This document shows positions 1 through 56,271 of a stretch of DNA of 64,000 bases, in pieces. The position numbers and the translations under genes are program-made. The DNA is from Minisyncoccota bacterium (GTDB taxonomy: Bacteria; Patescibacteriota; Minisyncoccia; 2-02-FULL-40-12; IGHO2-12-FULL-4), in NCBI GenBank assembly GCA_036517795.1, contig DATDTF010000011.1:9772-73771 (forward strand). The letters run 5' to 3'. How positions within the stretch are numbered: the first letter of the stretch is position 1; each line of letters begins with the position of its first letter. The notes under the pieces are model-generated. The model was not told the DNA's origin. It saw only the letters and a program-made list of their open reading frames with translations, and did not search any database.

Positions 1-319
1 CAAAATCAAAACAACGGAAAAGAATGGCGCGTTGACATTGTATCTATAATAATCAATAAACTTGACAAAAAAGCAAGTATAGTTCACTTTAAGAATGCGT
101 TGGCCAATCACCAGTAATCAAACCAGTTGACATCCCGCAGGACAAAGAATATGCTTAGCCAAGACTACTGAAAAGAAAAGGGCAAATCCCAACAAAAGGC
201 GGGGTTTTCGACTCTATTCCTAGGTAGATTGTGTTGTTTCTTGACAACATTTTTCTAACACTGGGCCATAGAATTGAAAACTCTGTTTTTTTATTTGTCC
301 AAATTTAACGGAGGGGGAT

Positions 320-5555: not shown

Positions 5556-6260
5556 ATGGAACGTAAAATTATCTTTTCACCAGGAGAGTACTATCATGTT
5601 TATAATCGTGGTGTTGAAAAACGTAAAATTTTTCTTGAGGATAGAGATTATAATCGTTTTTTAAAAATGCTTTTTTTGGCAAATGGGTCTAACCCAATTG
5701 TTTTTAAAACTGTCCAAGGGCTGCCCTTGGATAAACTTGAGCCAGGAGAAAGAGTGGTTGCTATTGGTGCTTTTGTTCTAATGCCCAACCATTTTCATAT
5801 TCTTGTAAAAGAAAGGGTGGCAGGTGGTTTAACAAACTTTATGCTGAAACTTACCACAGGATATGCTATGTATTTCAATAAAAAATATGAGAGAGTTGGT
5901 TCATTATTCCAGAGTAGGTTTAAGGCGGAACACGTTGACGATGACGACTATCTAAAATATTTATTTTCGTATATACATTTGAATCCAATTAAAATTATTG
6001 AGTCGTCTTGGAAAGAAACAGGGATAACGAACATTAAAAAAGCAGAAGTATTCCTCAATAACTACCGATATTCTAGTTACCCTGATTATGTAGCAGGGTA
6101 TAGGCCAGAAAAAAAGATTCTTAACCTGAAAGAGTTTCCAAATTATTTTGAAAATAAACATATTTTCGCCAACTTTCATAAGGAATGGTTGGTTTTAAAA
6201 GCCAACTATCATCAACTATCCAAGGGCTGCCCTTGGATAGTTGATGATTATAAAAAATAA
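5556..6260 (+). CDS. IS200/IS605-family (Y1 HUH) transposase, REP-associated tyrosine transposase (RayT)-like
   Basis: HUH motif MPNHFHILV. N-terminal GEYYHVYNRG. Catalytic-Tyr region FNKKYERVGSLFQSRF. Start trimmed to MERKII. Flanked by, and containing, REP-like hairpins. Confidence 0.7.
   Translation: MERKIIFSPGEYYHVYNRGVEKRKIFLEDRDYNRFLKMLFLANGSNPIVFKTVQGLPLDKLEPGERVVAIGAFVLMPNHFHILVKERVAGGLTNFMLKLTTGYAMYFNKKYERVGSLFQSRFKAEHVDDDDYLKYLFSYIHLNPIKIIESSWKETGITNIKKAEVFLNNYRYSSYPDYVAGYRPEKKILNLKEFPNYFENKHIFANFHKEWLVLKANYHQLSKGCPWIVDDYKK
5713..5731. repeat. REP-like palindrome inside the transposase CDS (TCCAAGGGC t GCCCTTGGA)
   Basis: Same core as the flanking palindromes. It encodes QGLPLD. 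Confidence 0.6.
6210..6246. repeat. REP-like palindrome (18 bp arms) at the transposase 3' end
   Basis: CATCAACTATCCAAGGGC t GCCCTTGGATAGTTGATG. It encodes the C-terminal LSKGCPWIVDD. Confidence 0.7.
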
Positions 6261-6816: not shown

Positions 6817-9414
6817 ATGAAAAAGTTAATTCTAATTGACGCCAATGCTTTGGTCCACCGAGCCTTTCATGCTTTGCCGCCTTTAACTTCCCCGCAGGGC
6901 GTGATTGTCAATGCAGTTTACGGCTTTACCTCGGTACTGCTTAAGACCATAAAAGACATGCAGCCGGATTATATGGCTGCCGCTTTTGACTTGGCCGGAC
7001 CGACTTTCCGCCACGAAGAGTTTGAGGAATACAAAGCTCACCGCCAAAAAGCACCTGACGAACTTTATGCACAAATCCCTCTCATCCAAGAAGTTTTAAA
7101 AGCCTTCGGAATAGAAATTTTTACAAAAGAAGGTTACGAAGCTGATGACCTTATCGGTTCTTTGGCTGAAAAAGCTAAAAAAAATCAACAGAATGGCGGA
7201 CTGCAAACAGTTATTCTGACCGGGGATTTAGATACGCTCCAGTTAGTTGAAGATGATAAAGTCGTTGTTTTTACCCTACGCAAAGGAGTAAGCGATACGG
7301 TAACCTACAATGAAAAATCTGTCTTAGAACGTTATGGCCTGGAACCTTACCAAGTTGTGGATTTCAAAGGATTAAAAGGTGATCCGTCAGACAATATCCC
7401 CGGAGTTCCCGGTATAGGCGAAAAAACAGCTATGGCCCTCCTGCAAAAATATGAAACAGTTGAAAACCTATATGACCAGCTTAAGAAAATTAAAGAGTTC
7501 AAAAAAGGTGAGGTCTTGAGCGCCAAGCTGGCCCAGAAACTTAAAGAAAATGAAAAACAGGCAGTCTTCAGTAAAAGATTGGCAACAATCATCACTGATC
7601 TTGATATTGATTTCTCATTGGAGAAAGTAAATTGGAAAAATAAATATAACAAAGGAACAGTTACTCAAGTTCTGAAAAACTTAGGTTTTAACAGCCTACT
7701 TGCTCGCCTTCCGGACGGACAGGCATCCTTACCTGAACTTGACACAATAAAAAACAAAAACCAATCCGAAAATCGGGAAAGTGAGCAAAAGAGCTTGCGT
7801 TTTAATGAACCACAGCCTTTGATTTTACAAACTTCCGACCCGAGTGTCGCTTACTTAAACGGTGACACCACCACACCAGAAAAGATATCTTCAAAACTTA
7901 AAGATATCTTAGAAGATGGAAACATTGCCAAAAGAGGGCATAATCTGAAGCCTGTTGTTAAACTTCTCCTAAACCAAGACATCCGCGTTAAAAATCTTGA
8001 CTTTGACACGGCCCTGGCATCTTACTTGGTGAGACCGGAACTTAAAGACTACGACTTAGACAAAATCTACTTTATGGAGTTTGCCCAATCTTTTACAGAT
8101 ACGGGTTCAGCCTTACCAAAGTTAGTGGAGGTTCTCGGAAAAAAACTAAAAGAAAAAGGGCTGATGAAGGTTTTTGAAGAAATTGAAATGCCTCTTATCC
8201 CGGTTCTGGCGGAAATGGAAAAAAACGGCATCAAGATTAACACAGCCGGCTTGGAAAAATTATCAGAAAAAGTAAATACTGAAATTACCGGCTTGGAAAA
8301 GAAAATTTATGAATTAGCCGGACAAGAATTTAATATCAACTCACCCCAACAACTCGGAGAAATTCTTTTTGACAAGCTTCAACTTAAAACTAGGGTCAGG
8401 AAGACCGGCGGGGGAGCACGTTCAACGGCCGTGTCCGAACTTGAAAAACTGCACGACGAACATCCGATAATTAAGCTGGTCATGCAATACCGCGAACTTC
8501 AAAAACTGAAGACAACTTATATTGAACCGTTTCCGACTCTCGTTGACCCCGAAGATAGCCGCCTGCACACCACCTACAACCAAACAGGAACAGTTACCGG
8601 CAGGCTTTCCAGCCAAGACCCAAATCTCCAAAACATTCCCATTCGCACTGAACTTGGACAAGAGTTTAGAAAAGCCTTTGTTGCTGAAGACAGCTGGCAG
8701 CTTCTGTCACTTGATTATTCTCAAATTGAGTTAAGAGTAGCCGCCTACCTGTCTGGCGATCAAAAAATGATTGCGGCTTTTCAAAACAATGAAGACATTC
8801 ACACCAGAACCGCCGCCGAAGTATTTGAGGTCAGCCCCGATAAAGTTACCCATCAAATGCGTAGAGAAGCCAAAGCCCTCAACTTCGGCATTTTGTTCGG
8901 TATGGGAGTTCTGGGTTTTGCCCGTTCTGCGGGCGTGGATAAAATGCGCGCCAGAGAGTTTATTACAAAATATCTAAACAAGTTTTCAGGCATGGCAGAC
9001 TACATGGAAAAAGCCAAGACTGAAGCCAAAGAAAAAGGCTATGTTCAAACTTACTTCGGCAGAAGAAGGGATTTGCCGGAGATAAATTCCAGCATGCCTC
9101 ACATGGTAGCCCAAGCTGAAAGAATGGCCATTAATGCCCCGATACAAGGGACGGAAGCCGATATTATGAAGCTGGCAATGATAGGGGTTTACAATTTCAT
9201 ACACGAAAGTAAGATTGAAAACGAAGCTAGAATTTTACTTCAAGTCCATGATGAGTTACTGTGTGAAGTAAAGAAAGAGAAGATACGGGAGATATCAGGC
9301 AAATTTAAAGAAATTATGGAAAAAGTATGGACTCCCATCTCAAAAAACAACCAAGCTTCAGTTCCCATAGTAGTTGACGTGAAAATAGGGGAAAACTGGG
9401 CGGAAATGTCATGA
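6817..9414 (+). CDS. polA: DNA polymerase I
   Basis: 865 aa. N-terminal 5'-3' exonuclease (LILIDANALVHRAFHALP). Polymerase motifs DYSQIELR and QVHDELL. Confidence 0.9.
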   Translation: MKKLILIDANALVHRAFHALPPLTSPQGVIVNAVYGFTSVLLKTIKDMQPDYMAAAFDLAGPTFRHEEFEEYKAHRQKAPDELYAQIPLIQEVLKAFGIEIFTKEGYEADDLIGSLAEKAKKNQQNGGLQTVILTGDLDTLQLVEDDKVVVFTLRKGVSDTVTYNEKSVLERYGLEPYQVVDFKGLKGDPSDNIPGVPGIGEKTAMALLQKYETVENLYDQLKKIKEFKKGEVLSAKLAQKLKENEKQAVFSKRLATIITDLDIDFSLEKVNWKNKYNKGTVTQVLKNLGFNSLLARLPDGQASLPELDTIKNKNQSENRESEQKSLRFNEPQPLILQTSDPSVAYLNGDTTTPEKISSKLKDILEDGNIAKRGHNLKPVVKLLLNQDIRVKNLDFDTALASYLVRPELKDYDLDKIYFMEFAQSFTDTGSALPKLVEVLGKKLKEKGLMKVFEEIEMPLIPVLAEMEKNGIKINTAGLEKLSEKVNTEITGLEKKIYELAGQEFNINSPQQLGEILFDKLQLKTRVRKTGGGARSTAVSELEKLHDEHPIIKLVMQYRELQKLKTTYIEPFPTLVDPEDSRLHTTYNQTGTVTGRLSSQDPNLQNIPIRTELGQEFRKAFVAEDSWQLLSLDYSQIELRVAAYLSGDQKMIAAFQNNEDIHTRTAAEVFEVSPDKVTHQMRREAKALNFGILFGMGVLGFARSAGVDKMRAREFITKYLNKFSGMADYMEKAKTEAKEKGYVQTYFGRRRDLPEINSSMPHMVAQAERMAINAPIQGTEADIMKLAMIGVYNFIHESKIENEARILLQVHDELLCEVKKEKIREISGKFKEIMEKVWTPISKNNQASVPIVVDVKIGENWAEMS

Positions 9415-16479: not shown

Positions 16480-18057
16480 ATGAACATAGACTATACTAAA
16501 TTAAGCAAATCTTTAGACCTTTCTGATAAAAAAGAAAGGTTTTTATATCGCCTTTTTGAGGTTTTGCCAGGCTTTTTGGCTTGGCTGACATTGTTTCTGA
16601 TTATCTTTTTATCTTTTGTTGCACCGGCTTTTACTGCCGTTTTTATCATATTATTTGACATCTATTGGCTTATCAAAACCGTCTATCTTTCTTTTCACCT
16701 AAGATACGCCTACAGAAAATTAAGACAAAATTTAACGATCGATTGGCTTGAGCGACTGGAAAAACTGCCAGTCACAGACTATAAATTACAGGAAGTTAAA
16801 TCTTGGCAGGACATCTATCACCTGATAATTTTGCCTCGTTACAAAGAGGGGGGAGAACTGGTTATGGCCTCCATTGAGAGCATACTAAACTCAGCTTACC
16901 CCAAAACAAAAATAATTTTAGTTCTGACTCAAGAGGCTAGAGCCGGCATTGAAGAAAACAAATTAGGCTACGAGTTGGAAAAAGAATATGGCAGCAATTT
17001 TTTTCAGTTCTTGGTTACCGAACACCCGGATAACCTGCAAGGTGAAATAACGGGAAAGGGCTCAAACGCAGCCTACGCCGGAAAAATTGCCAAAGAAAAA
17101 ATCATTGACGCCCTAGGAATCAAATATAATCATGTTATTGTCTCAAACTTTGATATTGACACAGTCGCTCCCAACCACTACTTTTCTCTTTTGACATATC
17201 TTTATCTTACCACCCAAGACTCCTTACATACCTCCTACCAACCCATCCCTCTCTACACTAACAACATCTGGGAAGCTCCGGCATTGGCCCGGGTAGTCGC
17301 TTTCTCTGCCACTTTCTGGCACACAATACAACAAGAAAGGCCGGAGAGACTAACCACATTTTCCAGCCACTCAATGCCTTTTCAGGCTTTAGTTGACGTT
17401 AATTTTTGGCAAACTAATATGGTCTCCGAGGACTCGAGAATTTTTTGGCAATGTTTCTTGAGATACAATGGCAACTACCGGGTTACACCTATGTTCTACC
17501 CTGTTTCTATGGATGCCAATGTTGCTCCGAGTTTTTGGCAAACAATGAAAAACATCTACAAACAACAGAGACGCTGGGGTTTCGGAGTAGAAAATGTGCC
17601 CTATTTCTTTTTCGGTTTTTATAAAAACAAACTGATACCTCTGAAAAAAAAGCTTTACTACATCTTTAATATTCTTGAGGGTTTCCATTCTTGGGCCACC
17701 AACGCGGTTATTATTTTCCTTCTTGGCTGGTTACCAGTAGTAGTGGGCGGCTCAAAATTCAATCAGTCTGTCTTGTCTCTAAATCTTCCTCAATTCACAA
17801 GGGTTATTATGAGCTTAGCTATGATTGGACTCATTTCTTCGGCTGTTTTGTCTGTTGTCCTTTTGCCTCCTCGGCCCCTACACTATCGACGTTTCAAGTA
17901 TCTATGGATGGTTTTGCAGTGGATATTATTCCCCATAACCACGATCATTTTAGGCGCCCTGCCGGGTTTGGAGGCTCAAACCAGACTGATGCTCGGAAAA
18001 TACCTAGGTTTTTGGGTTACTCCGAAAGTAAGCCGACGAAGTCTAAGGAACTCTTAG
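16480..18057 (+). CDS. processive family-2 glycosyltransferase (cellulose/chitin-synthase-like), polytopic membrane protein
   Basis: N- and C-terminal TM bundles flank a cytoplasmic GT2 domain. QRRWGFG (QxxRW) processivity motif. The C-terminal tail runs into a dispersed repeat. Confidence 0.55.
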   Translation: MNIDYTKLSKSLDLSDKKERFLYRLFEVLPGFLAWLTLFLIIFLSFVAPAFTAVFIILFDIYWLIKTVYLSFHLRYAYRKLRQNLTIDWLERLEKLPVTDYKLQEVKSWQDIYHLIILPRYKEGGELVMASIESILNSAYPKTKIILVLTQEARAGIEENKLGYELEKEYGSNFFQFLVTEHPDNLQGEITGKGSNAAYAGKIAKEKIIDALGIKYNHVIVSNFDIDTVAPNHYFSLLTYLYLTTQDSLHTSYQPIPLYTNNIWEAPALARVVAFSATFWHTIQQERPERLTTFSSHSMPFQALVDVNFWQTNMVSEDSRIFWQCFLRYNGNYRVTPMFYPVSMDANVAPSFWQTMKNIYKQQRRWGFGVENVPYFFFGFYKNKLIPLKKKLYYIFNILEGFHSWATNAVIIFLLGWLPVVVGGSKFNQSVLSLNLPQFTRVIMSLAMIGLISSAVLSVVLLPPRPLHYRRFKYLWMVLQWILFPITTIILGALPGLEAQTRLMLGKYLGFWVTPKVSRRSLRNS

Positions 18058-18130
18058 TCTGCCGAAGTTGCTCTGCCGACGTTTTACATCCGTAGTAGTC
18101 TGACAACCTCTTAAGTAAGCCGACGATACC
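18024..18130. repeat. dispersed intergenic repeat (family 2 copy)
   Basis: Reverse-complement match to segments of 22558..22730 (gtctgacaacctcttaagtaagccgacg vs cttacttaagaggttgtcagac). Contains GTTGCTCTGCCGACGTTTTA, which resembles the MITE 5' end. Confidence 0.6.
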
Positions 18131-20329
18131 CTACTCAAAATGCCTAATCTTCTGAAATTTAGCTAACTGATTTTTTAGAGCAGGATAACTTTTAAGATTT
18201 GGATCTTCCTTCAGTAAAAGCTTGGCTTCTAGCCGGGCTTTTTTTATTAGGTCTAAATCAGTCAAAGAAGCCATGGCTAAGTCAGGCAAGCCGGATTGTT
18301 TAGTACCGACAAATTCTCCCGGTCCGCGTAACAACAAATCTTGTTCAGCCAACTTGAAGCCGTCATCGGAAATCTCCAAAGCCCTTAGCCTCTTATTCTC
18401 AAAACGATTATTGCCGCCATTAACCAAAAAACAATACGACTGATGTTCCGCTCGCCCAACCCGGCCGCGAAACTGATGCAGTTGCGACAGTCCGAATCTT
18501 TCAGCATTCTCAATTAACATTACTGTAGCATTGGGAACATCCACTCCGACCTCAACAACCGAGGTGGATACCAAGATCTGATACTTTCCGTTTTTAAAAT
18601 CTTCCATTATTTTTTCCTTTTCTTTAGGCTTCATTTTTCCGTGAAGCATGGCAATCTTAAAATTAGGAAAAACTTTTTGTGAAAGTTTTTCATATTCGGT
18701 AGTGACGGCTTTGACTTCGGCCCACAAAATATTCATCTTGTTTTGTTGGGCAGAAGTTTTTACTGCTTCTTGCGGATTGCTAAGTTCGATGCGGGGACAT
18801 ATAACAAAAGTCTGCCGACCAGACAGAATTTCCTTTTCAACAAAACCGTAAACTTCGGCAGACTTATCTTTTGCAAAAACTTTGGTAATAATTTTCTTTC
18901 GGTCTTTCGGCTTTTCTTTAATTAAGGAAACGTCCAAGTCGCCGTATATAGTTAGCGCGAGTGTTCGTGGTATTGGCGTTGCAGTCATAGAGAGCAAATG
19001 TGGTGTCAAGGGTGCGGGGGATTGGGCGTCCCAGTGCCGATATTGCTTTGCCGGTATTTCTTCCCTTGTCCCTTGTCCCTTTACCAGTTGCATTCTCTGC
19101 TTTACACCAAAACGATGCTGTTCATCTATTATTATCAATCCCAAATTTTTAAATTTAACATCTTTTTGTATAACTGCGTGTGTGCCGACAACTATATCTA
19201 TCTCGCCATTTGAGATTTTCTTTTGCATTAAATTTTTAGAGATTTTTTCTTCAGTAACTTCGTCTATCGGCCACTGTTTTGCCTCACTTCCAGTCAGTAA
19301 ACCCACCCTGGTCCTTAATCTGCCAAGCAACGACTTTATGGTTGCATAATGCTGTTGCGCCAATATCTCCGTTGGTGCCATAAAAACCGTTTGAAAACCC
19401 GAGTTGGCGGTCTGACAGGCGGCAATAATCGCAACGATTGTCTTGCCTGAACCGACATCGCCATTTAATAGCCTATTCATAGGATAACTTCTGCCAAAAT
19501 CTTTCATAATCTCAAAAGCGCAAACCCTCTGATCATTAGTCAAAACAAACGGCAAGCTCCCGACAAACCCTTTTACCAACTCCGGTTTGAAAATTACCGA
19601 AGGCGCTTTAAGTTTGGAAAGACCGCGCCGACCCAAAAGAGACTTGATTTGAAACAAAAGCAATTCATCAAAGGCAACCCTTTTTCTGGCAACTCCAGCT
19701 TCCTCTAAAGATTCCGGAAAGTGAATTGTCTTTATTGCTAGGTCCAAGCTGGGAAAATTATATTTTTTTCTTACGTTTTCCGGCAGATGATCGGAAAACT
19801 TATCTGTAGCACCTAGCAAAGGTTTTATTAAAAAACGAAGGTATCTGGAGGAAATGCCCTCTGTCTCCGGATAGACAGGCACTAGTCTGCCGGTATGGAC
19901 CAAGTCAATCTTGGTCTCAAAAATTTTTTCATACGAAGGGCTGGAAAGATAAATTCCCCGCTTATCCAAAGCCACCTTACCGGATAAGCTGACGAGACTT
20001 CCTTCGACAAGAGAGTTTTCTATATATGGCTGATTAAACCAAACAGCTCTGGTCTGTTCATCACCGTCTTTTATGTGAGCCTCTGTTATGGACATCCGGC
20101 GGCGCCAAATATTAGTCGTTTTTATCTTCGCCACCTCGCCTATGATACTGATCACTTTGCCGACTTCTCCAACCTCACCCAGACCAACTGTTTGAGTGAA
20201 ATCTTCGTAACGGCTGGGAAAATGCCAGAGCAAATCTTTGACAGTTTTAATGCCCAGCCTTTTCAGTCTCGGCAAATTCTTAGGCCCAACTTTAGGCAAT
20301 TTTTCTATAGGAGTAAGCAAATCCAGCAT
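18131..20329 (-). CDS. recG: ATP-dependent DNA helicase RecG
   Basis: 732 aa. Walker A GDVGSGKT. DEQHRFGV. MTATPIPRTL. Carries an in-frame repeat-derived insertion (see findings). Confidence 0.85.
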   Translation of the reverse strand: MLDLLTPIEKLPKVGPKNLPRLKRLGIKTVKDLLWHFPSRYEDFTQTVGLGEVGEVGKVISIIGEVAKIKTTNIWRRRMSITEAHIKDGDEQTRAVWFNQPYIENSLVEGSLVSLSGKVALDKRGIYLSSPSYEKIFETKIDLVHTGRLVPVYPETEGISSRYLRFLIKPLLGATDKFSDHLPENVRKKYNFPSLDLAIKTIHFPESLEEAGVARKRVAFDELLLFQIKSLLGRRGLSKLKAPSVIFKPELVKGFVGSLPFVLTNDQRVCAFEIMKDFGRSYPMNRLLNGDVGSGKTIVAIIAACQTANSGFQTVFMAPTEILAQQHYATIKSLLGRLRTRVGLLTGSEAKQWPIDEVTEEKISKNLMQKKISNGEIDIVVGTHAVIQKDVKFKNLGLIIIDEQHRFGVKQRMQLVKGQGTREEIPAKQYRHWDAQSPAPLTPHLLSMTATPIPRTLALTIYGDLDVSLIKEKPKDRKKIITKVFAKDKSAEVYGFVEKEILSGRQTFVICPRIELSNPQEAVKTSAQQNKMNILWAEVKAVTTEYEKLSQKVFPNFKIAMLHGKMKPKEKEKIMEDFKNGKYQILVSTSVVEVGVDVPNATVMLIENAERFGLSQLHQFRGRVGRAEHQSYCFLVNGGNNRFENKRLRALEISDDGFKLAEQDLLLRGPGEFVGTKQSGLPDLAMASLTDLDLIKKARLEAKLLLKEDPNLKSYPALKNQLAKFQKIRHFE
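19025..19054. repeat. MITE-derived fragment in frame within recG
   Basis: ggcgtcccagtgccgatattgctttgccgg. Its reverse complement matches the MITE 3' end (caatatcggcactgggacgcc). It encodes KQYRHWDAQ, a roughly 16 aa extra segment between DEQHRFGV and MTATPIPRT. Confidence 0.6.
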
Positions 20330-22557: not shown

Positions 22558-22730
22558 AAAGAGATTGTCTAACTTCCATGTCGGTTACAATCTCGGTTTG
22601 CAACTTCGGAAGTTAAGAGGTTTGTGAACTTCTATGACTTACTTAAGAGGTTGTCAGACTTCTCTGGTTGCCTAACCTCGGTTTGCAATATCGGCAATTC
22701 AGAGACTTCAGACTTCGTTGGCTTACTTAC
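22558..22730. repeat. dispersed intergenic repeat (family 2, composite copy)
   Basis: Shares about 65 bp with 25925..25990. Has reverse-complement matches to 18024..18130. Contains caatatcgg. Confidence 0.6.
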
Positions 22731-24528: not shown

Positions 24529-25023
24529 TTATATAAAGATCTTTTTAGTGTTTTTATCTCTGTTTTTTCCTCTGTGCGTTAACTGCAAGCTATGACAATT
24601 TGGGCAGAGTATCCTTAGGTTTTCTAAACGATTATCGTGCCTATCACCATTAATATGATCTAGTTCTAACGGGATCCTATTATCAACTGACTTTTTTGAC
24701 CATCCACACTCTTCACAACTCATACTTTTAAGATTAACCTGAAAAAGTCTCTTTTTTAACTTAAAGCTTTGATAGGTACTGTTTCTGATTAATATTTTCT
24801 CCAACGGTATTAGTGGTTTTCCGAGTCCACGTAGACCCTTATTCCAAGCCTTGCCTTTAAAATGTTTCGTACTGAAGTTGTTTTCTTCAATATATTTCTT
24901 TAGCTGTTCATAATTACCACCAGCTTCCCTCAACTTCAACTTTGCCAAAACTTGCCTATAGCTAGGAGATTTTTTGACTGCTTCTCGCAGTTGCTCTGTC
25001 GTCCAAGTTCTCTTTTTGCCCAT
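24529..25023 (-). CDS. HNH endonuclease (free-standing, homing-endonuclease-like)
   Basis: INGDRHDNRLENLRILCPNCH and CEECGW zinc-ribbon/HNH motifs. Sits between rfbA and tRNA-Leu. Confidence 0.6.
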   Translation of the reverse strand: MGKKRTWTTEQLREAVKKSPSYRQVLAKLKLREAGGNYEQLKKYIEENNFSTKHFKGKAWNKGLRGLGKPLIPLEKILIRNSTYQSFKLKKRLFQVNLKSMSCEECGWSKKSVDNRIPLELDHINGDRHDNRLENLRILCPNCHSLQLTHRGKNRDKNTKKIFI

Positions 25024-25896: not shown

Positions 25897-25924
25897 ATCT
25901 TAATTTTTAACTTTTTCAATTAAA

Positions 25925-25990
25925 GACTGTCTAACTTCGACGGTCAAGATAACCTCGGTTTTCAACTTCGGAAGCTAAGAGGTTTCTTTT
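25925..25990. repeat. dispersed repeat (family 2 copy)
   Basis: tgtctaacttcgacggtcaag..cggttttcaacttcggaagctaagaggtttc is near-identical to part of 22558..22730. Confidence 0.6.
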
Positions 25991-26319
25991 ATTCGACGGG
26001 TTACGTTTTCTATTTTCGCCGCCCTTTCTTCTGTTTCGTCCAGGACAAAAAACAATTTGGGTACCGGACGCATTTGCAGTTTCTTGTTAAGTGTTTGTTG
26101 AAAAAAATATATGCTTCTGTTGATACTCTCCAGAGCCTGCCGGCCGGCGTCCAGAGGAAAAACAGAAACATAAACCCTAACGTGGTTTAAATCTTCAGAA
26201 ACAACCGCCCTGGTAACTGTAACCAGAGCTTCAACATCAAGATCAAGTTCGCGATGCAAAATCTTGCCCACTTCATCTCTAATCAAATCATTTATTTTTT
26301 CCCGACGATGAGAGTCCAT
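25975..26319 (-). CDS. rbfA: ribosome-binding factor A
   Basis: 114 aa immediately downstream of infB. RbfA-like N-terminus. Confidence 0.7.
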   Translation of the reverse strand: MDSHRREKINDLIRDEVGKILHRELDLDVEALVTVTRAVVSEDLNHVRVYVSVFPLDAGRQALESINRSIYFFQQTLNKKLQMRPVPKLFFVLDETEERAAKIENVTRRIKETS

Positions 26320-26321
26320 GA

Positions 26322-27893
26322 TTATAGAGATTTTTTAATTCTTTCTTCTTCATAAACCTCCAGGATGTCTCCTTCTTTAACAAACATATTTGGAGCGATT
26401 GGCTGGCCGAAATCAACTCTTAAACCGGCTTCCAAACCTTCTGCAACTTCTTCCACATCCGCTTTTTGCTGTTGAAGCTGTCCGAGTTTTCCTTTCGTTA
26501 TTACATTACTGTTTCTAGTCACCTCAATCAATGCGCCTCTCTTGATTTTACCAGAAATCACTTTTCCTCCCACAACCTGATTTTTAGGGTCCTTTTTGAA
26601 TAAGGCCAACACCTTAAGCCTACCCAAGGAAATTCTATTAATTTCCGGATCTAAAAGGTCGGACATCTTTCTTTTTACCTCCTCCACCAGCTCATAAATT
26701 ATGTCAAAAGATTCTACCACTATCCCATCCCTTTCCGCCATTTGACGGAGAGAACTACTGGCCGGAACATGAAATCCCACCACCATAGACTTTGTCGCTA
26801 TGGCTTTTTTGATGTCACCTTCCGAGATGTTGCCAATGCCAAAATCCACAACTTTGTATCCGACTTCTTCTGATTTTATTGTTCTCAAAACTTGGTCAAT
26901 TGCCTCAAGAGAGCTTGAGACGTCAGCTTTAACTATTAAATTCAGACTTTTATTTTTACTCTTTTCCGGCCCGCTTGCTTGAATAAAAATTACCGGCCGG
27001 CCAAGAATTGAATTCTCTTTAGCTAACTTCAAAGCTTCTTCTCTGGAATCACTTCTCTTCACAACTTCGCCCAAAACCGGAGAGCTGGCCCAACCCAAAA
27101 CTACCGCCGGCTGTGACGGACCAGCCTTAGTCAAATTCCTACCTAAGAAATCCGCCATTGATTTAATTCTAACTGCTTCCGGGCCGGTTATAATCCAGTC
27201 ATTTGTATGAAAGAACCCGCTTTTGACTAAAATGGTAGCCACATGACCGCGTCGATTATCCAAATAGGAATCAATTATAACTCCCGTAGCAGAAGCATCA
27301 TCTGATTTAAGCTCTTCCAATTCGGCTACTAAAAGAATCATCTCCAACAAAGAATCTATACCTTGACCGGTTTTCGCTGAAACTTCTATTACCGGCGTCT
27401 TGCCGCCCCACTCTTCTATGAAAACATTGTTTTCTGAAAGTTCCTGCTTAACCTTCTGCACATTAGCGTTTTCTTTGTCTACTTTATTTATGGCGACAAT
27501 AAAAGGCGTCTTAGTCTCTTCAATAATTTTGATGGCTTCCTTTGTCTGAGGTTTTACACCCTCATCGGCGGCCACAACTAAAATTGCCACGTCAGCCACA
27601 TTAGCACCTCTGGAGCGTATGGCTGAAAAAGCCTCATGACCGGGAGTGTCCAGAAAAGTTATGGTGCGCAAGCTCGGCAGTGCAATATCGGAGGTTGGTT
27701 GGTTGTCTTTAGTTGACACTTCTACCTGATAAGCACCGATGTGCTGGGTAATCCCACCTGCTTCTCCTTCGGCAATTTTGGTTTTACGAATGTAATCCAA
27801 AATTTTAGTCTTACCATGGTCAACATGTCCCAAAACAACCACAATTGGTGGTCTGGTTTGAAAATTTACCTTTTTTTCCTGTGTTTCTGCCAT
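26322..27893 (-). CDS. infB: translation initiation factor IF-2 (short form)
   Basis: G-domain motifs [16 protein letters not shown] and NKVD. Beta-barrel domains. Carries an in-frame repeat insertion before DTPGH. Confidence 0.9.
   Translation of the reverse strand: [523 protein letters not shown]
27669..27702. repeat. MITE 5'-end fragment in frame within infB
   Basis: Minus strand reads caaccaacctccgatattgcactgccgagct and encodes [11 protein letters not shown], absent from canonical IF-2 between GAYxVE and ITFLDTPGH. Confidence 0.65.
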
Positions 27894-33140: not shown

Positions 33141-33530
33141 TTAATAAGTGGAGAATCTTTTTTCTTTAAATTTTTTGTCGCTTTGCTTTTTGCTCTCCTT
33201 GTCATACCAATCTATAATATTTAAAGCGTCTGCGTAGTTTTCATCCATCAATTCTGCCGGTACATCCACCCCTTTAAGCACCTTTTTAATCGCCGCAAAA
33301 ACTTTTTCTCTCTCGAATTTATGGTCTTCGGAAGCAACCATACCAAAACTCGGATTGTTTTTGCGCAACTCTGTCAAGCGTCCTGCCTTGTAGCGTCTAA
33401 AAATATTAATGACATCATTCAGTTCCGAGTCACTCAACTCTTTCAGGCCTCTTGAAAAATCCGACTTAATTTCAACTCTTGGCCCGGAAAACTTATCTTC
33501 TCTTTTTTCTGTTTGCATATTAGTTAACAT
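33141..33530 (-). CDS. hypothetical protein (129 aa)
   Basis: ORF only. Charged, no recognised motif. Confidence 0.25.
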   Translation of the reverse strand: MLTNMQTEKREDKFSGPRVEIKSDFSRGLKELSDSELNDVINIFRRYKAGRLTELRKNNPSFGMVASEDHKFEREKVFAAIKKVLKGVDVPAELMDENYADALNIIDWYDKESKKQSDKKFKEKRFSTY

Positions 33531-33645
33531 TTAAAATTTCAATTGAAAAATATCACAAAAGTGATAGAATGGCAACCGACGGCGTGAAAACTCGGCAAAG
33601 AAAAATATCGGCAGATAAGAGATTTGTGGATTTCGTCAGCTTACT

Positions 33646-39856: not shown

Positions 39857-41833
39857 ATGCCTAGTGGTCTTTTTGAAGGTTTAAACGAAAAACAATTAGA
39901 AGCAATACAGACCACGGAAGGTCCTGTTTTGGTTATTGCCGCCGCCGGCAGCGGTAAAACCAAGGTTCTGACTCACCGAATTGCCCACCTCATTCAGCGA
40001 GGGATAAAACCAGAAAACATACTGGCGGTCACTTTCACAAATAAAGCGGCGGGTGAGATGAGAGAGCGAGTTCGCAATTTACTCAAAAACTCTTCTGTTT
40101 TACCGCTACTTGGCACATTCCATTCAATATCAGCAAGGTTGTTAAGAAACGAGCTCGGGAAACTTGATTTGCCTTATGACTCTAATTTCGTGATTTACGA
40201 CACTGAAGACCAGCTGGGCGTTATCAAAAAGGTTATGGAGGAGTTGGAAATTGATAGTAAGAAAACAAATCCTCGGGCTATCCTTTCCAGAATATCGGAA
40301 GCGAAAACAAACTTAGCCGGACCAGAAGAGTATGTGAAATCCGCAAAAGATTTTTTCTCAAAAACAGTCGCCAGGATTTATCCGCTTTACCAAAAAAATC
40401 TTGAAACCAGCAACGCGATGGACTTTGATGATCTTCTTTTTTTGACAGTGAAAATGCTTAAACAAGAGAAAAACATACTGGAAAAATATCAAAACCTCTT
40501 TAGATATATCCTGGTTGATGAATACCAAGACACAAACAAACCACAATATCTTTTTCTGAAAATGCTGGCCCAAAAGCATAAAAATATTATGGCGGTGGGA
40601 GACGACTATCAATCAATATATTTATTCCGCCAGGCTGACATCCGTAATATTTTGAGTTTTGAAAAAGACTATCCGGAAGCTAAAATTGTTTTTTTGGAGC
40701 AAAACTATCGTTCCACCCAAAATATTCTGGCTGCCGCCCAGAACATAATCTCAAATAATAAGTTCCAGCGACATAAAAATCTCTGGACTGAAAATCAGGA
40801 AGGGGAAAAAATACTGCTCGCCGAACTCAGCAACGAAAGGGAAGAAGGCGGATTCATAACCGACGAAATAAAGAAGGGTCTGAAAACCGGCGCTGATTTG
40901 AACGACTTTTGCATCCTGTACCGAACGCACGCCCAGTCGCGTGCAATTGAAGAAGCCATGTTAAAAGCCGGTTTGCCTTACAAAATCATCGGCGGTTTAA
41001 AATTCTATGAGAGAAAAGAAGTTAAAGACATTTTAGCTTATTTGAGACTTCTGCTTAACCCGACAGACAACTTCAGTTTAGAAAGAATACACAACGTGCC
41101 AAGCAGGGGAGTAGGCAAAAAAACTTTTGAGAAGATATTGGAAACACAAAAACAGAAATCTTCCAAAAGCGTTTTTGAACTTTTCAAAGACCATAGAGAA
41201 GAATTAGACAAAAAGGCTTTATCCGGTTTAGCTTCGCTGAGCAAAACCATGAACAGCTTGGAAGAAAAACTGGACGAATTTTACCTCTCAAAACTTATAA
41301 AAAAACTTCTTCAGGAGATTGATTACCAAAAATTTCTTCAGGAAAAAACCGTTGACAGCGAGTCCCGCTGGGAAAACGTAAAAGAGCTTCTGACAGTTAC
41401 GGCAAAATATGACAGTTTGAAATCCCGTGAATCTCTTCCGATTTTTCTGGAAGAAGTTTCACTTATACAGGAAACGGATCAAATCAAAAACCAAGAAAAA
41501 AATGTAACCCTCATGACGATGCACGCTTCCAAAGGTTTGGAATTTCCTACCGTTTTTTTAGCCGGCATGGAAGAAGGACTATTCCCTCATCCCAGGTCGA
41601 CTCTTGATCCGGTTGAATTGGAAGAAGAGAGAAGGCTATGCTACGTCGGAATCACCAGAGCCAAAGAAAAACTTTACTTGACTCATTGTCAAAACCGCAT
41701 GGTTTATGGCTCTTCACAATTCAACCCAATCTCAAGATTTGTTTCTGAAATACCAGAGGACTTTGTCTCCGAAAACGCAAAAAAACCATTTAGGCGAGAT
41801 TTTAATTATGAGGACTTCATAGATTATGATTAA
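39857..41833 (+). CDS. pcrA: ATP-dependent DNA helicase PcrA/UvrD
   Basis: LNEKQLEAIQ..GPVLVIAAAGSGKT Walker A. DEYQDTN motif. 658 aa. Confidence 0.85.
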   Translation: MPSGLFEGLNEKQLEAIQTTEGPVLVIAAAGSGKTKVLTHRIAHLIQRGIKPENILAVTFTNKAAGEMRERVRNLLKNSSVLPLLGTFHSISARLLRNELGKLDLPYDSNFVIYDTEDQLGVIKKVMEELEIDSKKTNPRAILSRISEAKTNLAGPEEYVKSAKDFFSKTVARIYPLYQKNLETSNAMDFDDLLFLTVKMLKQEKNILEKYQNLFRYILVDEYQDTNKPQYLFLKMLAQKHKNIMAVGDDYQSIYLFRQADIRNILSFEKDYPEAKIVFLEQNYRSTQNILAAAQNIISNNKFQRHKNLWTENQEGEKILLAELSNEREEGGFITDEIKKGLKTGADLNDFCILYRTHAQSRAIEEAMLKAGLPYKIIGGLKFYERKEVKDILAYLRLLLNPTDNFSLERIHNVPSRGVGKKTFEKILETQKQKSSKSVFELFKDHREELDKKALSGLASLSKTMNSLEEKLDEFYLSKLIKKLLQEIDYQKFLQEKTVDSESRWENVKELLTVTAKYDSLKSRESLPIFLEEVSLIQETDQIKNQEKNVTLMTMHASKGLEFPTVFLAGMEEGLFPHPRSTLDPVELEEERRLCYVGITRAKEKLYLTHCQNRMVYGSSQFNPISRFVSEIPEDFVSENAKKPFRRDFNYEDFIDYD

Positions 41834-42758
41834 AGATAAAATAGTGAATAAAAAATATCAACCATCTTCCGACATTGCACTGCCGAGCTTTAGCGCCGTC
41901 AGCAAAAGTAAACCAAAAAGGGACTTCGCCAAAGGCGCGGAATGTCAAAGACAAGCTCAACATCGGCATCGGGACGCCAAAAAACTAGGACAAAACTTTC
42001 TAAAAAACACCGGAATACTTAAATCCATCGTTGGGATGGCTGAAATTTCAGCCGACGATATTGTTTTGGAGGTAGGCGCCGGCACGGGTCTGCTCACAGA
42101 GAAGCTAGCCGAAACCGGAGCCAAAATAATTGCTGTTGAAAAAGACCGGAACTTGATTCCGATTCTGGAAACCAAGTTTAAAAATCAAAAAAATGTTACA
42201 ATAATTGAAGGCGATATATTAAGGTTCGACCTTAATCTGACCAAGGTCGAACCTTGGAAATACAAGGTAGTGGGAAACATTCCGTATTATCTAACTTCGC
42301 ATTTGATAAGAAAAGTTTTAGAAGATTGGCCCACACCAAAACTAATTTTGTTCATGTTACAAAAAGAGGTGGCTCAAAGGATAGTTGCCAAACCTCCGAA
42401 AATGAACTTGCTTGCCTTATCTGTCCAGCTTTATGCGGACGCCCAGATAATGAGGAGCGTCTCAAAGAAAAATTTCTGGCCAGAACCAAAAGTTGATTCA
42501 GCTTTAATAAAAATACTGCCTAAAGACCGAGACGCAAAAGAAAAAAATGACATTGAAAAGATTTTGAAATTAGCTCGTTTGGCTTTTAGCGGTAAAAGAA
42601 AACAAATACTAAACAGTCTTTCAACCGGATTAAAAATTCCAAAGGAAAAACTTATCGGTACACTTCAGGAAGCCGGCATTGACAGCAAAAGACGCCCCGA
42701 GTCTCTAGAAATCAGCGAATGGTTAAAACTAAACCAAACTTTATCTTCGCAGTTTTAG
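41826..42758 (+). CDS. rsmA: 16S rRNA (adenine1518/1519-N6)-dimethyltransferase RsmA/KsgA
   Basis: KKLGQNFL start-of-family motif. SAM-binding VLEVGAGTGLLT. The roughly 50 aa N-terminal extension is encoded by a MITE copy. No in-frame ATG lies between the element and the KsgA core. Confidence 0.75.
   Translation: MIKDKIVNKKYQPSSDIALPSFSAVSKSKPKRDFAKGAECQRQAQHRHRDAKKLGQNFLKNTGILKSIVGMAEISADDIVLEVGAGTGLLTEKLAETGAKIIAVEKDRNLIPILETKFKNQKNVTIIEGDILRFDLNLTKVEPWKYKVVGNIPYYLTSHLIRKVLEDWPTPKLILFMLQKEVAQRIVAKPPKMNLLALSVQLYADAQIMRSVSKKNFWPEPKVDSALIKILPKDRDAKEKNDIEKILKLARLAFSGKRKQILNSLSTGLKIPKEKLIGTLQEAGIDSKRRPESLEISEWLKLNQTLSSQF
41868..41976. repeat. MITE-like element, full-length copy (about 109 bp) inside the rsmA 5' region
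   Basis: 5' tccgacattgcactgccgagctttagc ... aaaagggacttcgccaaaggcg ... caacatcggcatcgggacg 3'. Terminal inverted repeats CCGAYATTG/CAAYATCGG. Confidence 0.7.
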
Positions 42759-48807: not shown

Positions 48808-49299
48808 ATGAGAAATATCTACAGTCCAATTGAAGTTGATGACGACTCTTTACTGCTTGACGACGAAAAGCACGAGTTGTTTTACTCAAAAATTAATGCC
48901 TTGCCTCAAAACATTCAAGACTTGCTTTTTTCTTTGGACACAGAGGATAAATTAAAAAATATAGCTGTTCAAACCAAACTAAACCAGAATCAATCCATCG
49001 AGCTGACTCGCTTGGTTAGGGATGTGTTGATAAATGAAATCTATCTTGGAGACATAATCAAAGAGTCACAAAAACGCCTTGTTGTTAGTGAAGAATTTGC
49101 CCGTGAAATTGCCAACCAAATTGTTTCTGTAATTCTTGCTCCTGCCCTTGAAGATATTAAAAAAATTCACGTTGAGAAGTTCGGACGTCCCGCTGCCGAC
49201 GTTGCCACGCCTTCTAACAGCAAGTCACAAATCCCAGAAAGAGACAAGCCCCAGATAATAAACCCTGGCAATATAGTAAATCTTAGAAACAAAAATTAG
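48808..49299 (+). CDS. hypothetical protein (163 aa) in T4SS-like operon
   Basis: ORF only. 6 nt after the upstream stop. Confidence 0.3.
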   Translation: MRNIYSPIEVDDDSLLLDDEKHELFYSKINALPQNIQDLLFSLDTEDKLKNIAVQTKLNQNQSIELTRLVRDVLINEIYLGDIIKESQKRLVVSEEFAREIANQIVSVILAPALEDIKKIHVEKFGRPAADVATPSNSKSQIPERDKPQIINPGNIVNLRNKN

Positions 49300-51991: not shown

Positions 51992-52660
51992 ATGGCCGAC
52001 CAAATAGAAGAATCGTCCGAAAATGAAACTGATGAAGAAGAAGCGATAGCTTTAGTTTTTCAAACTGAACAAGAACTAAATTTGGCCAAACAGAGATTGC
52101 TGGCAGTTTCAGAAGAAGGACAAAGCTATAAAAACCCTTCTTTACTAAAATATGGATTTTTATTTTTTGTCGCTGGTGCCATAGATGCCGTTGATTTTTT
52201 GGATTTGACAGGTGCGGGCATAATAATTGCAAAGATAGTTTCTATAGCCGGAACTTGTATTATATATTTCACTTTATGGCTTACCGACAGCCGATTCAAA
52301 AAAGCCCATGAACTTATTGGCAATCTGGAAGAAGCAATCTTGGATGTTCAGCAAAAAGCAGCCAGAGTAAGCAGTTTGGCAATGAGAACATCTCGAGTTC
52401 TTAGCAAGATACCTGGCATGAAAGGATTGGCCAGAAGAATACCGAGAACTATGGTTAAAATTAGACGATTAGCCCGTAAAAACCCGCTTACGAAAGTTCT
52501 AATTGGAGGTGCAATTAACCTCATACCATTTCTGGCAATAATTAATCTAATGATAGTTTGGGTATGGCTAAATTATCACGACGAGAAAAAAGCCTTCAAG
52601 CACGCCCGACAGTCATCACAAGAGGCGTTAACACAAATTGAAATGACGGGAACAGCATGA
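51992..52660 (+). CDS. membrane protein (222 aa), acidic N-terminus, 3 TM, in T4SS-like operon
   Basis: ORF with clear TM helices. Occupies the position of VirB8/PrgL-like proteins. No motif support. Confidence 0.3.
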   Translation: MADQIEESSENETDEEEAIALVFQTEQELNLAKQRLLAVSEEGQSYKNPSLLKYGFLFFVAGAIDAVDFLDLTGAGIIIAKIVSIAGTCIIYFTLWLTDSRFKKAHELIGNLEEAILDVQQKAARVSSLAMRTSRVLSKIPGMKGLARRIPRTMVKIRRLARKNPLTKVLIGGAINLIPFLAIINLMIVWVWLNYHDEKKAFKHARQSSQEALTQIEMTGTA

Positions 52661-52686
52661 TAAAGTAGAGTCAGTGGTAAGAAACT

Positions 52687-52795
52687 CAATTTAATTCCGA
52701 TATTGCTCTGCCGAGCTTTAGCAAGTGTCAGCTGGGATAAAGTCAAAAGGGACTTTGCCAAAGGCGGAGTGTGTCAAAGACAAGAACAATATCGG
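52687..52795. repeat. MITE-like element, full-length copy (intergenic)
   Basis: ccgatattgctctgccgagctttagc...aaaagggactttgccaaaggcgg...caatatcggcattgggacg. About 80% identical to the 41868 copy. Confidence 0.7.
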
Positions 52796-52805
52796 CATTG
52801 GGACG

Positions 52806-53900
52806 ATGAACCAAAAAACAATTCTTACAATTCTAATACTTGTGCTGGCTGGTATAGTAACCTTTTTGGGAGGCTACCTTTTGGCAAACAAAGGCACCGG
52901 ACAAACTGCCAACATAGCCGGACTGAACCGTTTTTCAAATTTCTCCGCCAATAAGCCCGAATCTGAAAAAACCACTACAGTAAAGTTAAACCGCTTGAGC
53001 AGTGTCAAGGTTGTGAGTCCGGCCATTTCTGAAAACGGCAGAAATATTAACTACTTTGAAAAGGGCACGGGAAAAATTTTCTCCAGTGACTTTGCCGGAC
53101 AAAGCATTAATATTATCAACGGCAACATTAAAGAAGACGTTACCGGAGCTGTCTGGTCAAAAAACGGTTGGCAAGCAGTTGTCGCAAGAAAAACTTCCCG
53201 CGGACAAGTTTTTAGCCTGTCTGACTTAAAAATTGACATATTAACAGATCTAAATGAAAAGATGTCAGGAATAACCTGGTCTCCGGACGGACAAAAAATA
53301 GCTTACTTGTTTTTTGACTCTTCAGCAGAAGAAGGAAACATCAGTATTGCAAATCCCGATGGCTCATCCTTTAAAAACGTTCTGCCCACCAGAAATAGCC
53401 AATTAAAAATATCTTGGCCCAGTAAGGATAGCCTTGCTTTCTATAGTCCGAGTGGGGTAGACCGAAGTTTGTTCCTGCTAAATATGGAAACTGGGGAGCT
53501 GGAGAAAATTTTGGAGTCAGCCAACAACTTAAAAACTCTCTGGTCTCCAGATGGCTTAAATTTAATTTATTCTCACAGCAAAGAGGACGGTAGTGTAGTG
53601 ACAAACTTGCTTCAACTTAAAGAAGATAACCGTTCTGTTTTAGATCTCAGCCTGCAGACCAATGCCGATAAATGCGTTTGGAGTTTAAACTCACAAAAAT
53701 TTTATTGCGGAGGAACTAAAGCCGACGGCGCGGAGGAGGGTCTTTATGAATTTGACCTAACTAAAAAGGAATTTGGTTTGGTGTTTCAGTCCAGTTCTGT
53801 CGACCAAATTGAAATTGAAAAACCTTTCTTATCACCAGTAGAAAATTTCATCTTTTTTACAAACGGCTACGATCAGTATCTCTTCTCTATTAGCCTTTAA
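52806..53900 (+). CDS. secreted PD40/TolB-like beta-propeller repeat protein
   Basis: N-terminal TM/signal (MNQKTILTILILVLAGIV). Repeated WSPDGxxIAY / WSPDGLNLIYS motifs. Start trimmed to exclude repeat-encoded residues. Confidence 0.5.
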   Translation: MNQKTILTILILVLAGIVTFLGGYLLANKGTGQTANIAGLNRFSNFSANKPESEKTTTVKLNRLSSVKVVSPAISENGRNINYFEKGTGKIFSSDFAGQSINIINGNIKEDVTGAVWSKNGWQAVVARKTSRGQVFSLSDLKIDILTDLNEKMSGITWSPDGQKIAYLFFDSSAEEGNISIANPDGSSFKNVLPTRNSQLKISWPSKDSLAFYSPSGVDRSLFLLNMETGELEKILESANNLKTLWSPDGLNLIYSHSKEDGSVVTNLLQLKEDNRSVLDLSLQTNADKCVWSLNSQKFYCGGTKADGAEEGLYEFDLTKKEFGLVFQSSSVDQIEIEKPFLSPVENFIFFTNGYDQYLFSISL

Positions 53901-55809: not shown

Positions 55810-55821
55810 GTCATTTTCAGC

Positions 55822-55959: not shown

Positions 55960-55981
55960 ATAAGTAATATATACTATTCTG

Positions 55982-56243: not shown

Positions 56244-56271
56244 TAGAAGAAAGTAATTAGGAAAAACAAAT

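Follow-up and report, generated by a model that had tools for sequence, protein, structure and literature searches.

Where the extra codons in the GTPase (G) domain of a bacterial translation initiation factor came from, and when they arrived, is the question raised by a 64-kb stretch of DNA from a Minisyncoccota bacterium (assembly GCA_036517795.1, contig DATDTF010000011.1; all 64,000 nucleotides [nt] of it are called the window below). The infB gene of this stretch, which encodes the initiation factor IF-2, contains an in-frame insert that an earlier note on this DNA had read as a fragment of a repeat dispersed through the same stretch. The host is an ultra-small, Yanofskybacteria-like bacterium of the Candidate Phyla Radiation (CPR; Patescibacteria). 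In our judgment, the insert very probably belongs to a dispersed family of modular repeats, 120 to 160 nt long, and copies the short form that consists of the 5' module; it was most likely gained in the window's own lineage. Beyond what the earlier note had proposed, the complete element occupies this IF-2 site in another lineage, further genes host in-frame pieces of it, and the family is associated with start codons.

The identity of the host gene is clear. The closest homologues of the protein are IF-2 proteins of Candidatus Yanofskybacteria, residues 12 to 521 align with solved bacterial IF-2 structures (E=1e-109 in the PDB), and a Foldseek comparison of its model gave a TM score of 0.81 to ribosome-bound E. 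coli IF2 (3JCJ_f). Precomputed Pfam matches comprise GTP_EFTU, IF-2 (PF11987), EF-G_D2, and GTP_EFTU_D2, and the order of parts is that of a bacterial IF-2, with a GTPase domain bearing G1 to G4 followed by domain II, the IF-2 domain, and the C-terminal beta-barrel. The motifs G1 (GHVDHGKT), G2 (GGITQHIG), G3 (DTPGH), and G4 (NKVD) are unbroken and keep their invariant residues, so that the earlier statement that the frame and G1 to G3 survive the insertion holds and extends to G4. The site given for the repeat fragment, 27669 to 27702, was the right one, but counting whole codons widens the insert slightly at both ends (Table 1).

The relationship of the insert to the repeat is evident at the nucleotide level. 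The 31-mer CAACCAACCTCCGATATTGCACTGCCGAGCT at 27671 to 27701 on the minus strand differs by three mismatches from each of two plus-strand sites, 41859 to 41889 and 61404 to 61434, and 100 dinucleotide shuffles yielded no such match. A degenerate 21-nt core, CCGAYATTGNNCTGCCGARYT, occurs exactly four times in the window (27671 on the minus strand, 41869, 52697, and 61414), against an expectation of 0.04. A nhmmer profile built from nine full-length repeat copies, none of them from IF-2, matched the window gene at 27697 to 27661 (minus strand) and recovered all five of the copies that the earlier note had listed. Proper alignment thus raised the similarity instead of reducing it to chance, with E values of 1.5e-7 for the window and 7e-11 and 6.6e-16 for IF-2 genes of other genomes. 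The nearest relative of the insert within the window is the copy at 61404, with which it has the variant CAACCAACYTCCGA in common.

The segment is not a universal feature of IF-2; its presence in all related proteins had been named beforehand as an outcome that would tell against a repeat origin. E. coli IF2 (3JCJ and 6O7K) is gapped where the insert sits, in line with the few residues that the note ascribed to canonical IF-2; the two closest orthologues, P0002 (86% identity) and P0003 (84%), are without it (P numbers denote proteins and L numbers fetched loci), as are most of the 120 best IF-2 homologues. The blastn alignment between the window and L004, the syntenic locus of P0002, is interrupted exactly at the insert. 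Among the same 120 homologues, the region from GAY to DTPGH is a hot spot of length variation, in which a short loop of about 4 to 5 residues (xNGK or xKDK) is lengthened in many proteins by unrelated inserts of 6 to 27 residues.

In an AlphaFold2 model of the window protein built on 52 aligned orthologues (mean pLDDT, 81.7), strands 53 to 59 and 76 to 82 are joined by a coil of residues 60 to 75, with pLDDT below 50 at 63 to 73. The insert begins 14 residues past the G2 threonine and ends 6 residues ahead of the G3 aspartate; it is thus predicted to form a disordered surface loop at the turn of the beta2-beta3 (interswitch) hairpin, in agreement with the surface location expected earlier. Judging from the general architecture of G domains, the tip of this hairpin would be directed away from the nucleotide and from the sarcin-ricin loop.

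The donor family is modular. Instead of the roughly 110 bp first proposed, the element measures about 120 nt in its core, and a loosely conserved, A-rich 5' extension of about 40 nt brings it to about 160 nt. The extension is followed by a 5' module (...CAAYYWAAYT-TCCGAYATTGCNCTGCCGAGCTTTNGC), a middle part that differs by subfamily and at times holds a hairpin of variable size, and a 3' module (AAG-N-CAAYNTCGGCAYYGGGRCG); the candidate ends can be written as TGCCGAYATTGC, and the 5' half also circulates alone. About 10 copies lie in the window, and more than 40 intergenic copies were found overall. Two of those in the window share the spacer between rnpA and dnaA (55810 to 56271), which is the usual location of the replication origin. 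An antisense match in the open reading frame (ORF) at 48808 to 49299 (E=0.05, ...PAADVATPS...) is too weak to call.

Table 1. Positions of the IF-2 insert, of repeat copies, and of associated features (window coordinates unless a locus is named)
Feature	Position	Strand	Evidence
infB, IF-2, short form (G domain and domains II to IV), 523 amino acids	26322-27893	-	ORF list, homologues, PDB, Foldseek
In-frame insert in IF-2, 42 nt = 14 codons, D63-R76; equals 5' module; predicted beta2-beta3 hairpin tip	27666-27707	-	Insert-free orthologues P0002, P0003
IF-2 stretch matching repeat profile, model positions 9-46	27661-27697	-	nhmmer E=1.5e-7
Genome-specific left arm CAACCAACCTCCGA of IF-2 copy	27688-27701	-	Variant scan
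Flank of insert, L004 9955-10173	27939-27721		blastn
Flank of insert, L004 10196-11529	27655-26323		blastn
Full-length copy, read in frame as about residues 12-51 of the RsmA (KsgA) ORF	41860-41976	+	nhmmer E=3e-26
Full-length copy, fills spacer after ORF 51992-52660, ends at ATG 52806 of beta-propeller-like membrane protein	52686-52805	+	nhmmer E=4e-28; Pfam; offset 0
Degenerate full-length copy, rnpA-dnaA spacer	55974-56094	+	nhmmer E=1.5e-11
5'-half copy, model 5-68, ends 10 nt upstream of dnaA ATG (56272)	56198-56261	+	nhmmer E=1.3e-7
5'-half copy between divergent PBP1 (59291-61390, -) and Trp/Tyr-tRNA synthetase (61563, +)	61404-61448	+	nhmmer E=3.3e-7; Pfam
Degenerate 5'-half copy, 46 nt upstream of ORF 33141-33530 (-)	33576-33619	-	nhmmer E=0.01
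Degenerate 5'-half copy, spacer downstream of recG; absent at syntenic site of closest relative (L004)	18051-18118	+	nhmmer E=0.002
RecG ORF, DEAD/RecG domains	18131-20329	-	Pfam
RecG in-frame insertion GTREEIPAKQYRHWDAQSPA, 60 nt = 20 codons, between helicase motifs II and III (DEQHRFG / SMTATPIPRT)	19013-19072	-	Gap of 20 residues in L004 RecG
Repeat 3' module inside RecG insertion	19027-19052	-	25/26 positions, nhmmer E=0.002
IF-2 of L001 (P0004), longer remnant; extra 24 nt run on along element	model 10-69		E=7e-11
IF-2 of L002 (P0005)	model 11-48		E=9e-4
IF-2 of L003 (P0006), broken by nested 39-nt GC-rich hairpin insertion	model 8-31		E=0.011
IF-2 of L099/L100/L101 (P0013/P0014), complete element, in frame, same loop	model 7-122		E=6.6e-16
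Start-codon-abutting copies	L104:4153-4272, L113:3810-3931 and 5872-5991, L119:663-787, L011:2870-2992, L102:2159-2274
Start-codon-abutting copies	L114:235-572, L049:7019-7136 and 7664-7783, L129:579-703, window 52686-52805
Homing-endonuclease-like ORF, HNH-like motif by eye	24529-25023	-
Homing-endonuclease-like ORF, HNH	L130:6833-7327
Homing-endonuclease-like ORFs, LAGLIDADG	L004:12599-13033, L002:2880-3575, L099:12058-12744

The same loop of IF-2 has received pieces of this family in other genomes. In P0013 and P0014, the 5' and 3' modules are both present and in the correct order in L099, and the complete element, 3' module included, translates into 38 residues following DDK. The remnant inserts of the four other carriers are 42, 66, 42, and 81 nt long, all multiples of three, the complete-element insert is likewise in frame, and none of the five inserts contains a stop codon. 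Since the profile matches include a complete in-frame element and no stops interrupt them, the IF-2 segment is a member of the repeat family and compatible with read-through translation. The insert in the P0006 gene (L003:720-800) holds, nested in frame, the 39-nt GC-rich hairpin TACCTGTCCGACTTCGCCTGGACGAAGTCCTGGCGGGCG, translated as TCPTSPGRSPGGR, an insertion within an insertion that apparently comes from a different repeat. Other insert types recur in this loop among P0009 to P0120 (...PSAGSGLKK and ...SQGSGPTK; TTNDQRPTTK and ATSDKRQAIK; VPQEPKSxxGG...), and the loop of P0024 contains an internally duplicated ISKFKEE...; these may come from further repeat families. The idea that the PSAGSGLKK and SQGSGPTK types are decayed 3' modules found no support, as only an 8-mer is common to them and no profile match was obtained.

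When the window copy arrived can be approached from its relatives. In a neighbor-joining tree of 40 IF-2 proteins (loop columns removed, 200 bootstraps), the window and the insert-free P0002 and P0003 formed one group at 100% bootstrap, the carriers were never monophyletic, and P0013 and P0014 never fell inside the window's clade. The syntenic 21.5 kb of L004 gave no profile match at all and has neither the RecG insertion nor the spacer copy that lies downstream of recG. Three copies in the window, those in IF-2, at 41859, and at 61404, have the left-arm variant CAACCAWCYTCCGA; among the 132 fetched loci it is otherwise confined to L007, a contig of the same species. This restriction to copies of its own genome argues for a local, lineage-specific acquisition or gene conversion. 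Rates of change point the same way. The window and L001 agree at 32 of the 33 positions of the insert core (10 of 11 at third-codon positions, partly by hand count), compared with 68% over the whole gene and 43% at third positions, while in the close pair of carriers L002 and L003, divergence is greater in the insert than gene-wide. The only difference in the 1,572 nt of infB between the window and L007, which belongs to another assembly, falls within the insert core (27686 versus L007:10208, A to C, I70L, changing CCGATATTG to CCGATCTTG). Taken together, the tree, synteny, the private variant, and the rate comparisons favor a gain in each lineage from its local copies, by acquisition or conversion, over constraint in situ, and we consider it probable, with less assurance than for the origin of the window insert itself, that at least three separate insertion events struck IF-2.

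We suggest that the 5' module was copied into the DNA for the turn of the beta2-beta3 hairpin, between G2 and G3, most likely in the window lineage after its split from the insert-free nearest relatives, and that the source would have been one of the genome's own repeat copies, acting through insertion or gene conversion. With its 42 nt and no stop codon in this frame, the insert would be read through by the ribosome, and IF-2 would gain 14 disordered surface-loop residues with its GTPase motifs untouched; the insert may well be neutral. The loop appears to be permissive and hypervariable across Parcubacteria, and the survival of such insertions under selection would explain why at least three IF-2 lineages have this family at one and the same position, in one case as the complete element. 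Several points weigh against this account. No transposase, clear target-site duplication, or other mechanistic footprint of an insertion was found in the sequence covered. All five IF-2 lineages have the same 5' junction and frame (G[AT]CAA...CCGA, 20 nt), which would also fit one old insertion that has since decayed by degrees and been lost repeatedly. Translation of the insert is presumed on the sole basis of frame conservation. The absence of the family from the insert-free relative relates to 21.5 kb of L004, the trees are neighbor-joining trees of one protein, and word-indexed peptide searches for further host proteins gave nothing usable. Two more specific models of the insertion were rejected. 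An empty IF-2 site resembling the 5' extension of the element, which would have suggested homology-driven insertion, was not seen, since nhmmer with the extension gave no loop match in insert-free genes; and mimicry of a start codon, with insertion upstream of an internal ATG, does not agree with the residues after the insert, which are T, P, or K in the carriers and not M (L099 continues CAAGATC).

A single ancient insertion is the strongest of the rival explanations, although we think it less likely than a local gain. It leaves the origin in a repeat unchanged and differs in history alone: the complete element would have entered the IF-2 loop once, in the ancestor of a large Yanofskybacteria clade, to be retained whole in P0013 and P0014, trimmed at its 3' side in the window, P0004, P0005, and P0006, and deleted in P0002, P0003, P0007, P0008, and many others. 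The 5' junction, the frame, and the 20-nt length of the left arm, the same in all five carriers, accord with such a history, as does the gradation of the remnants (model positions 7 to 122, 10 to 69, 9 to 46, and 11 to 48), and a loop that tolerates any length would make the deletions neutral. P0021, a sister of P0013 and P0014 at 70% bootstrap, has GGCTCGGGAC, with a faint likeness to the 3' module, but the idea of a 3'-module remnant failed the profile test. The history would also demand at least four or five independent complete losses, and it sits poorly with the private left-arm variant of the window copy, with a core shared almost letter for letter between the window and L001 in genes that have otherwise diverged, and with the absence from L004 of every syntenic copy and not merely that in IF-2. 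The near identity of the core might alternatively reflect function. If the core TCCGAYATTGCNCTGCCGAGCTT were a binding site or signal, the same as that in the leaders of ribosomal-protein and other translation genes, selection at the nucleotide level could keep it in infB, with the 14 residues as a by-product. This is an improbable reading, despite a core that is near-invariant across genera in intergenic copies, synonymous sites that in distant carriers are more conserved in the IF-2 core than in the rest of the gene, and a family concentrated ahead of genes for the translation apparatus; the closely related carriers L002 and L003 diverge more in the insert than over the gene, the one change between the window and L007 lies in the core, the core of L003 is split by a 39-nt insertion, and the nearest relatives manage without the insert.

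Two further explanations would remove the repeat, or the peptide, from the account. An ordinary lineage-specific expansion of the loop, whose likeness to the repeat would be due to chance or to convergence of amino acids, has in its favor the hypervariability of the site, with its many unrelated inserts, and the chance occurrence of SDIALPSL, and even of a 22-nt core, in an S41 peptidase of Udaeobacter. It is scarcely credible, and already refuted as far as the sequence evidence allows, given the profile match of 6.6e-16 with both modules in order in L099, the empty result of the shuffles, and a genome-specific variant common to IF-2 and other repeat copies of that genome. It is very unlikely, too, that the segment is missing from the mature protein through an assembly chimera, splicing, or translational bypassing. 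Repeats can mislead assemblers, and nothing more direct speaks for this; independent assemblies from several samples have in-frame inserts at the same place, the length variants are all multiples of three and free of stops, the truncated copies have no common ends that splicing could use, and no Rfam intron or ribozyme was found. Acquisition of a local repeat copy within the window's lineage is therefore the reading that we retain.

IF-2 is not the only gene with translated pieces of the family. The recG insertion contains the 3' module (Table 1); at its left junction (19050 to 19075, minus strand), three tandem 7-mers (AGGGACA AGGGACA AGGGAAG) resemble the internal AAGGGAC motif of the element and could be a footprint of microhomology or slippage. 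The RecG of L004 (L004:15290-17536) has its own insertion of 32 residues, DSKSATPPTLDPRLFAREFSSRGVADLPNLTI, where that of the window has none, and in-frame insertions therefore seem common in conserved proteins of this group. In the RsmA ORF (41826 to 42758), the Pfam RrnaAD domain starts at residue 49 and the repeat forms an N-terminal extension; direct reading revealed no in-frame ATG, GTG, or TTG from codon 7 to KKLGQNFL. On other CPR contigs, in-frame profile matches lie in a GalT-like enzyme (RAKRP / CPFE) and in a DivIC-like protein, where the match falls in the C-terminal extension, and a small protein has two. In-frame behavior is thus general for the family. An exhaustive phmmer search with P0121, the frame-A peptide of one repeat subfamily, returned only itself and beta-propeller repeat proteins whose scores are summed over many blades; the best match lies in a phage-tail-like locus, the DNA of which does not resemble the element. 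P0121 is 30 to 40% identical to every blade of about 50 residues in P0122 to P0126 (L133:654-10745), giant phage-tail-associated proteins (...SDxIxQYSLxT...QDNxPTG), and the two conserved DNA modules of the element coincide with the two conserved blade motifs; since DNA similarity is lacking, this likeness is probably a coincidence inflated by repeats.

The comparison with Rickettsia palindromic elements (RPEs) made in the earlier note is apt for behavior and not for membership. RPEs are dispersed repeats that have entered many genes in frame, at sites that the protein structure tolerates (Ogata et al. 2000, 2002, as reviewed in PMC10969869). They resemble the present family in being short (about 100 to 150 nt), dispersed, and both intergenic and in frame in unrelated, often essential genes, in adding translated peptide segments where the fold permits them, and in inhabiting the reduced genomes of host-dependent bacteria. 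In-frame copies in unrelated genes are amply represented here (IF-2 in five lineages, RecG, RsmA, the GalT-like and DivIC-like proteins, and the small protein), but RNAalifold on 21 copies revealed no palindrome with a stable hairpin, and RPEs belong to the Alphaproteobacteria, whereas the present family is found in Patescibacteria. For these reasons of phylum and fold, we do not claim membership and expect no sequence relation. The family also differs in having inverted motifs of only 9 to 12 nt instead of an overall palindrome, in its modularity (with the 5' half alone), tandem arrays, and a 3' end that abuts start codons, and in its recurrence at the same IF-2 codon position in several lineages.

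The description of the element as similar to a miniature inverted-repeat transposable element (MITE) stands in part. Its length of 120 to 160 nt (MITEs being shorter than 300 nt), its noncoding nature, and its copy number agree with it. Its inverted motifs are reminiscent of terminal inverted repeats but lie about 10 nt inside the conserved ends, and comparison of filled with empty sites (IF-2, RecG, and the spacer downstream of recG) gave no clear target-site duplication. No autonomous insertion sequence or transposase with matching ends was noticed among the few ORFs annotated, a point on which no systematic search was made. With bacterial MITEs and modular repeats (Correia/NEMIS, ERIC, BOX, and RUP), the family has in common its small size, multiple noncoding copies, candidate inverted terminal motifs, an intergenic or intercistronic location co-oriented with the downstream gene, and, as in BOX, variable internal modules; it departs from them in the inset position of its motifs and the lack of a visible target-site duplication. 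We know of no exact juxtaposition to start codons described for any of these four. Copies of ERIC and BOX are occasionally intragenic, with ORFs (PMC10969869). In full-text searches of incomplete coverage, we found no report of such an element in Patescibacteria or of an RPE in an initiation factor. The segment between the G2 threonine and G3 DTPGH also varies in length among IF-2 and eIF5B proteins in general, being longer in the archaeal and eukaryotic a/eIF5B; to our knowledge, natural expansions there are not known to derive from dispersed repeats, whereas in the present family the donor repeat is identified at the nucleotide level.

The other striking property of the family is its relationship to start codons. 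Of the 43 distinct copies whose 3' end is intact, 12 have ATG directly after them, 6 overlap GTG (GGGAC-GTG), 2 have ATG at +1 or +3, and 9 run into the next tandem unit; the 3' end ...YGGCAYYGGGACG lies at ATG offset 0 or GTG -1 in about 18 to 20 different genes. These include the genes for L24, L29, S8, S3, S10, S13, S11, L36, a release factor, and FtsZ, and the starts of L29, S8, S13, and L36 are genuine, because their Pfam domains begin at residues 1 to 5. In ribosomal-protein operons, the element occupies whole intercistronic spacers and leaves no normally spaced Shine-Dalgarno sequence. No structured RNA emerged: in Rfam, only tRNAs exceeded the gathering threshold in the whole window, and 52600 to 52900 had no match up to E=10. 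RNAalifold detected no covariation with 8 or 21 copies, and the 21 copies gave no stable consensus fold (-5.9 kcal/mol), the sole consensus pairing being an invariant 6-bp UGCCGA/UCGGCA without compensatory changes. The inverted motifs CCGA-NN-TTG(C) and (G)CAA-NN-TCGG are invariant; because the two N positions vary without compensation, the motifs look like sites recognized by a protein, in the manner of terminal inverted repeats, and not like an RNA helix. A sigma-70 promoter in the core was rejected, as the scan placed no promoter-like site on the conserved modules.

We classify the family as a MITE- or RPE-like propagating intercistronic repeat whose relationship to translation starts is possibly functional. 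A bolder proposal, which we think rather unlikely, is that the repeat is a self-propagating intercistronic leader cassette, integrated or homogenized precisely against the start codons of genes for the translation apparatus and cell cycle. Such a cassette might supply a signal for non-Shine-Dalgarno initiation or RNA processing (...YGGCAYYGGGACG|AUG), and its in-frame copies in IF-2, RecG, and RsmA would be off-target by-products through which essential proteins receive new peptide segments; the copy that ends 10 nt short of the dnaA start and the one translated at the N terminus of RsmA belong to the same context. If true, this would be a previously undescribed organization of gene expression in Patescibacteria.

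Even apart from that proposal, the colonization of essential genes in frame by dispersed repeats, until now essentially a matter of Rickettsia, extends at the nucleotide level to the CPR. The series at a single IF-2 codon position, comprising an empty site, inserts of 42 and 66 nt, a remnant with a nested insertion, and a full element, is unusually complete and identifies a permissive site in the G domain. It provides a concrete origin for some insertions, hitherto unexplained, that give CPR proteins and ribosomal components their odd look, and it warns annotators that repeat-derived segments are not domain features. Donor repeats that end at the start codons of ribosomal-protein genes provide a lead on translation starts or the processing of operon transcripts.

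Several observations concern the distribution and turnover of the family. An exact-core scan of one genome per species found it in multiple copies in only two CPR metagenome-assembled genomes, CAYILQ01 (labeled Saccharibacteria; about 16 core matches, some in tandem) and Yanofskybacteria RIFCSPHIGHO2_12_FULL_45_19b (four core matches). Single matches to the core pattern elsewhere were set aside as occurring at the chance rate or as a conserved S41 peptidase motif in Udaeobacter and other Verrucomicrobia. In soil Verrucomicrobia, 21 to 22 nt of the core recur exactly in the gene for an S41 (tail-specific) peptidase (L109:3722-3814, L117:2137-2230, L123, L124, L127, and L128, and also L008, L019, L026, and other Udaeobacter loci), a coincidence replicated by phylogeny and a warning against calls made on pattern alone. 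Tandem arrays, head to tail and with a period of about 88, 141, or 143 nt, were found at L069:5586-5886, L104:3845-4284, L114:957-1241, and L011:113-584 and 2076-2230. In L104, the L24 gene is preceded by three units that leave one frame open for 141 codons; this frame is that of the L24 ATG but has no start codon. Copies are more alike within one genome than at the same gene junction across genomes, those upstream of L36 and L24 in CAYILQ01, for example, differing from those in MGKD01/L104, and this homogeneity therefore indicates turnover or concerted evolution.

Further observations concern the surroundings of infB. The window also has three copies of a second, related repeat variant (minus strand, ...CTTCCGAAGTTGMAAACCGAGRTT...; 22562 to 22709 and 25924 to 26004), and one of them covers the end of rbfA, directly downstream of infB, from its last nine codons through the stop codon. 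Downstream of the infB-rbfA pair lies a free-standing homing-endonuclease-like ORF, the type of which varies among relatives (Table 1); different endonuclease types at one locus suggest repeated invasion.

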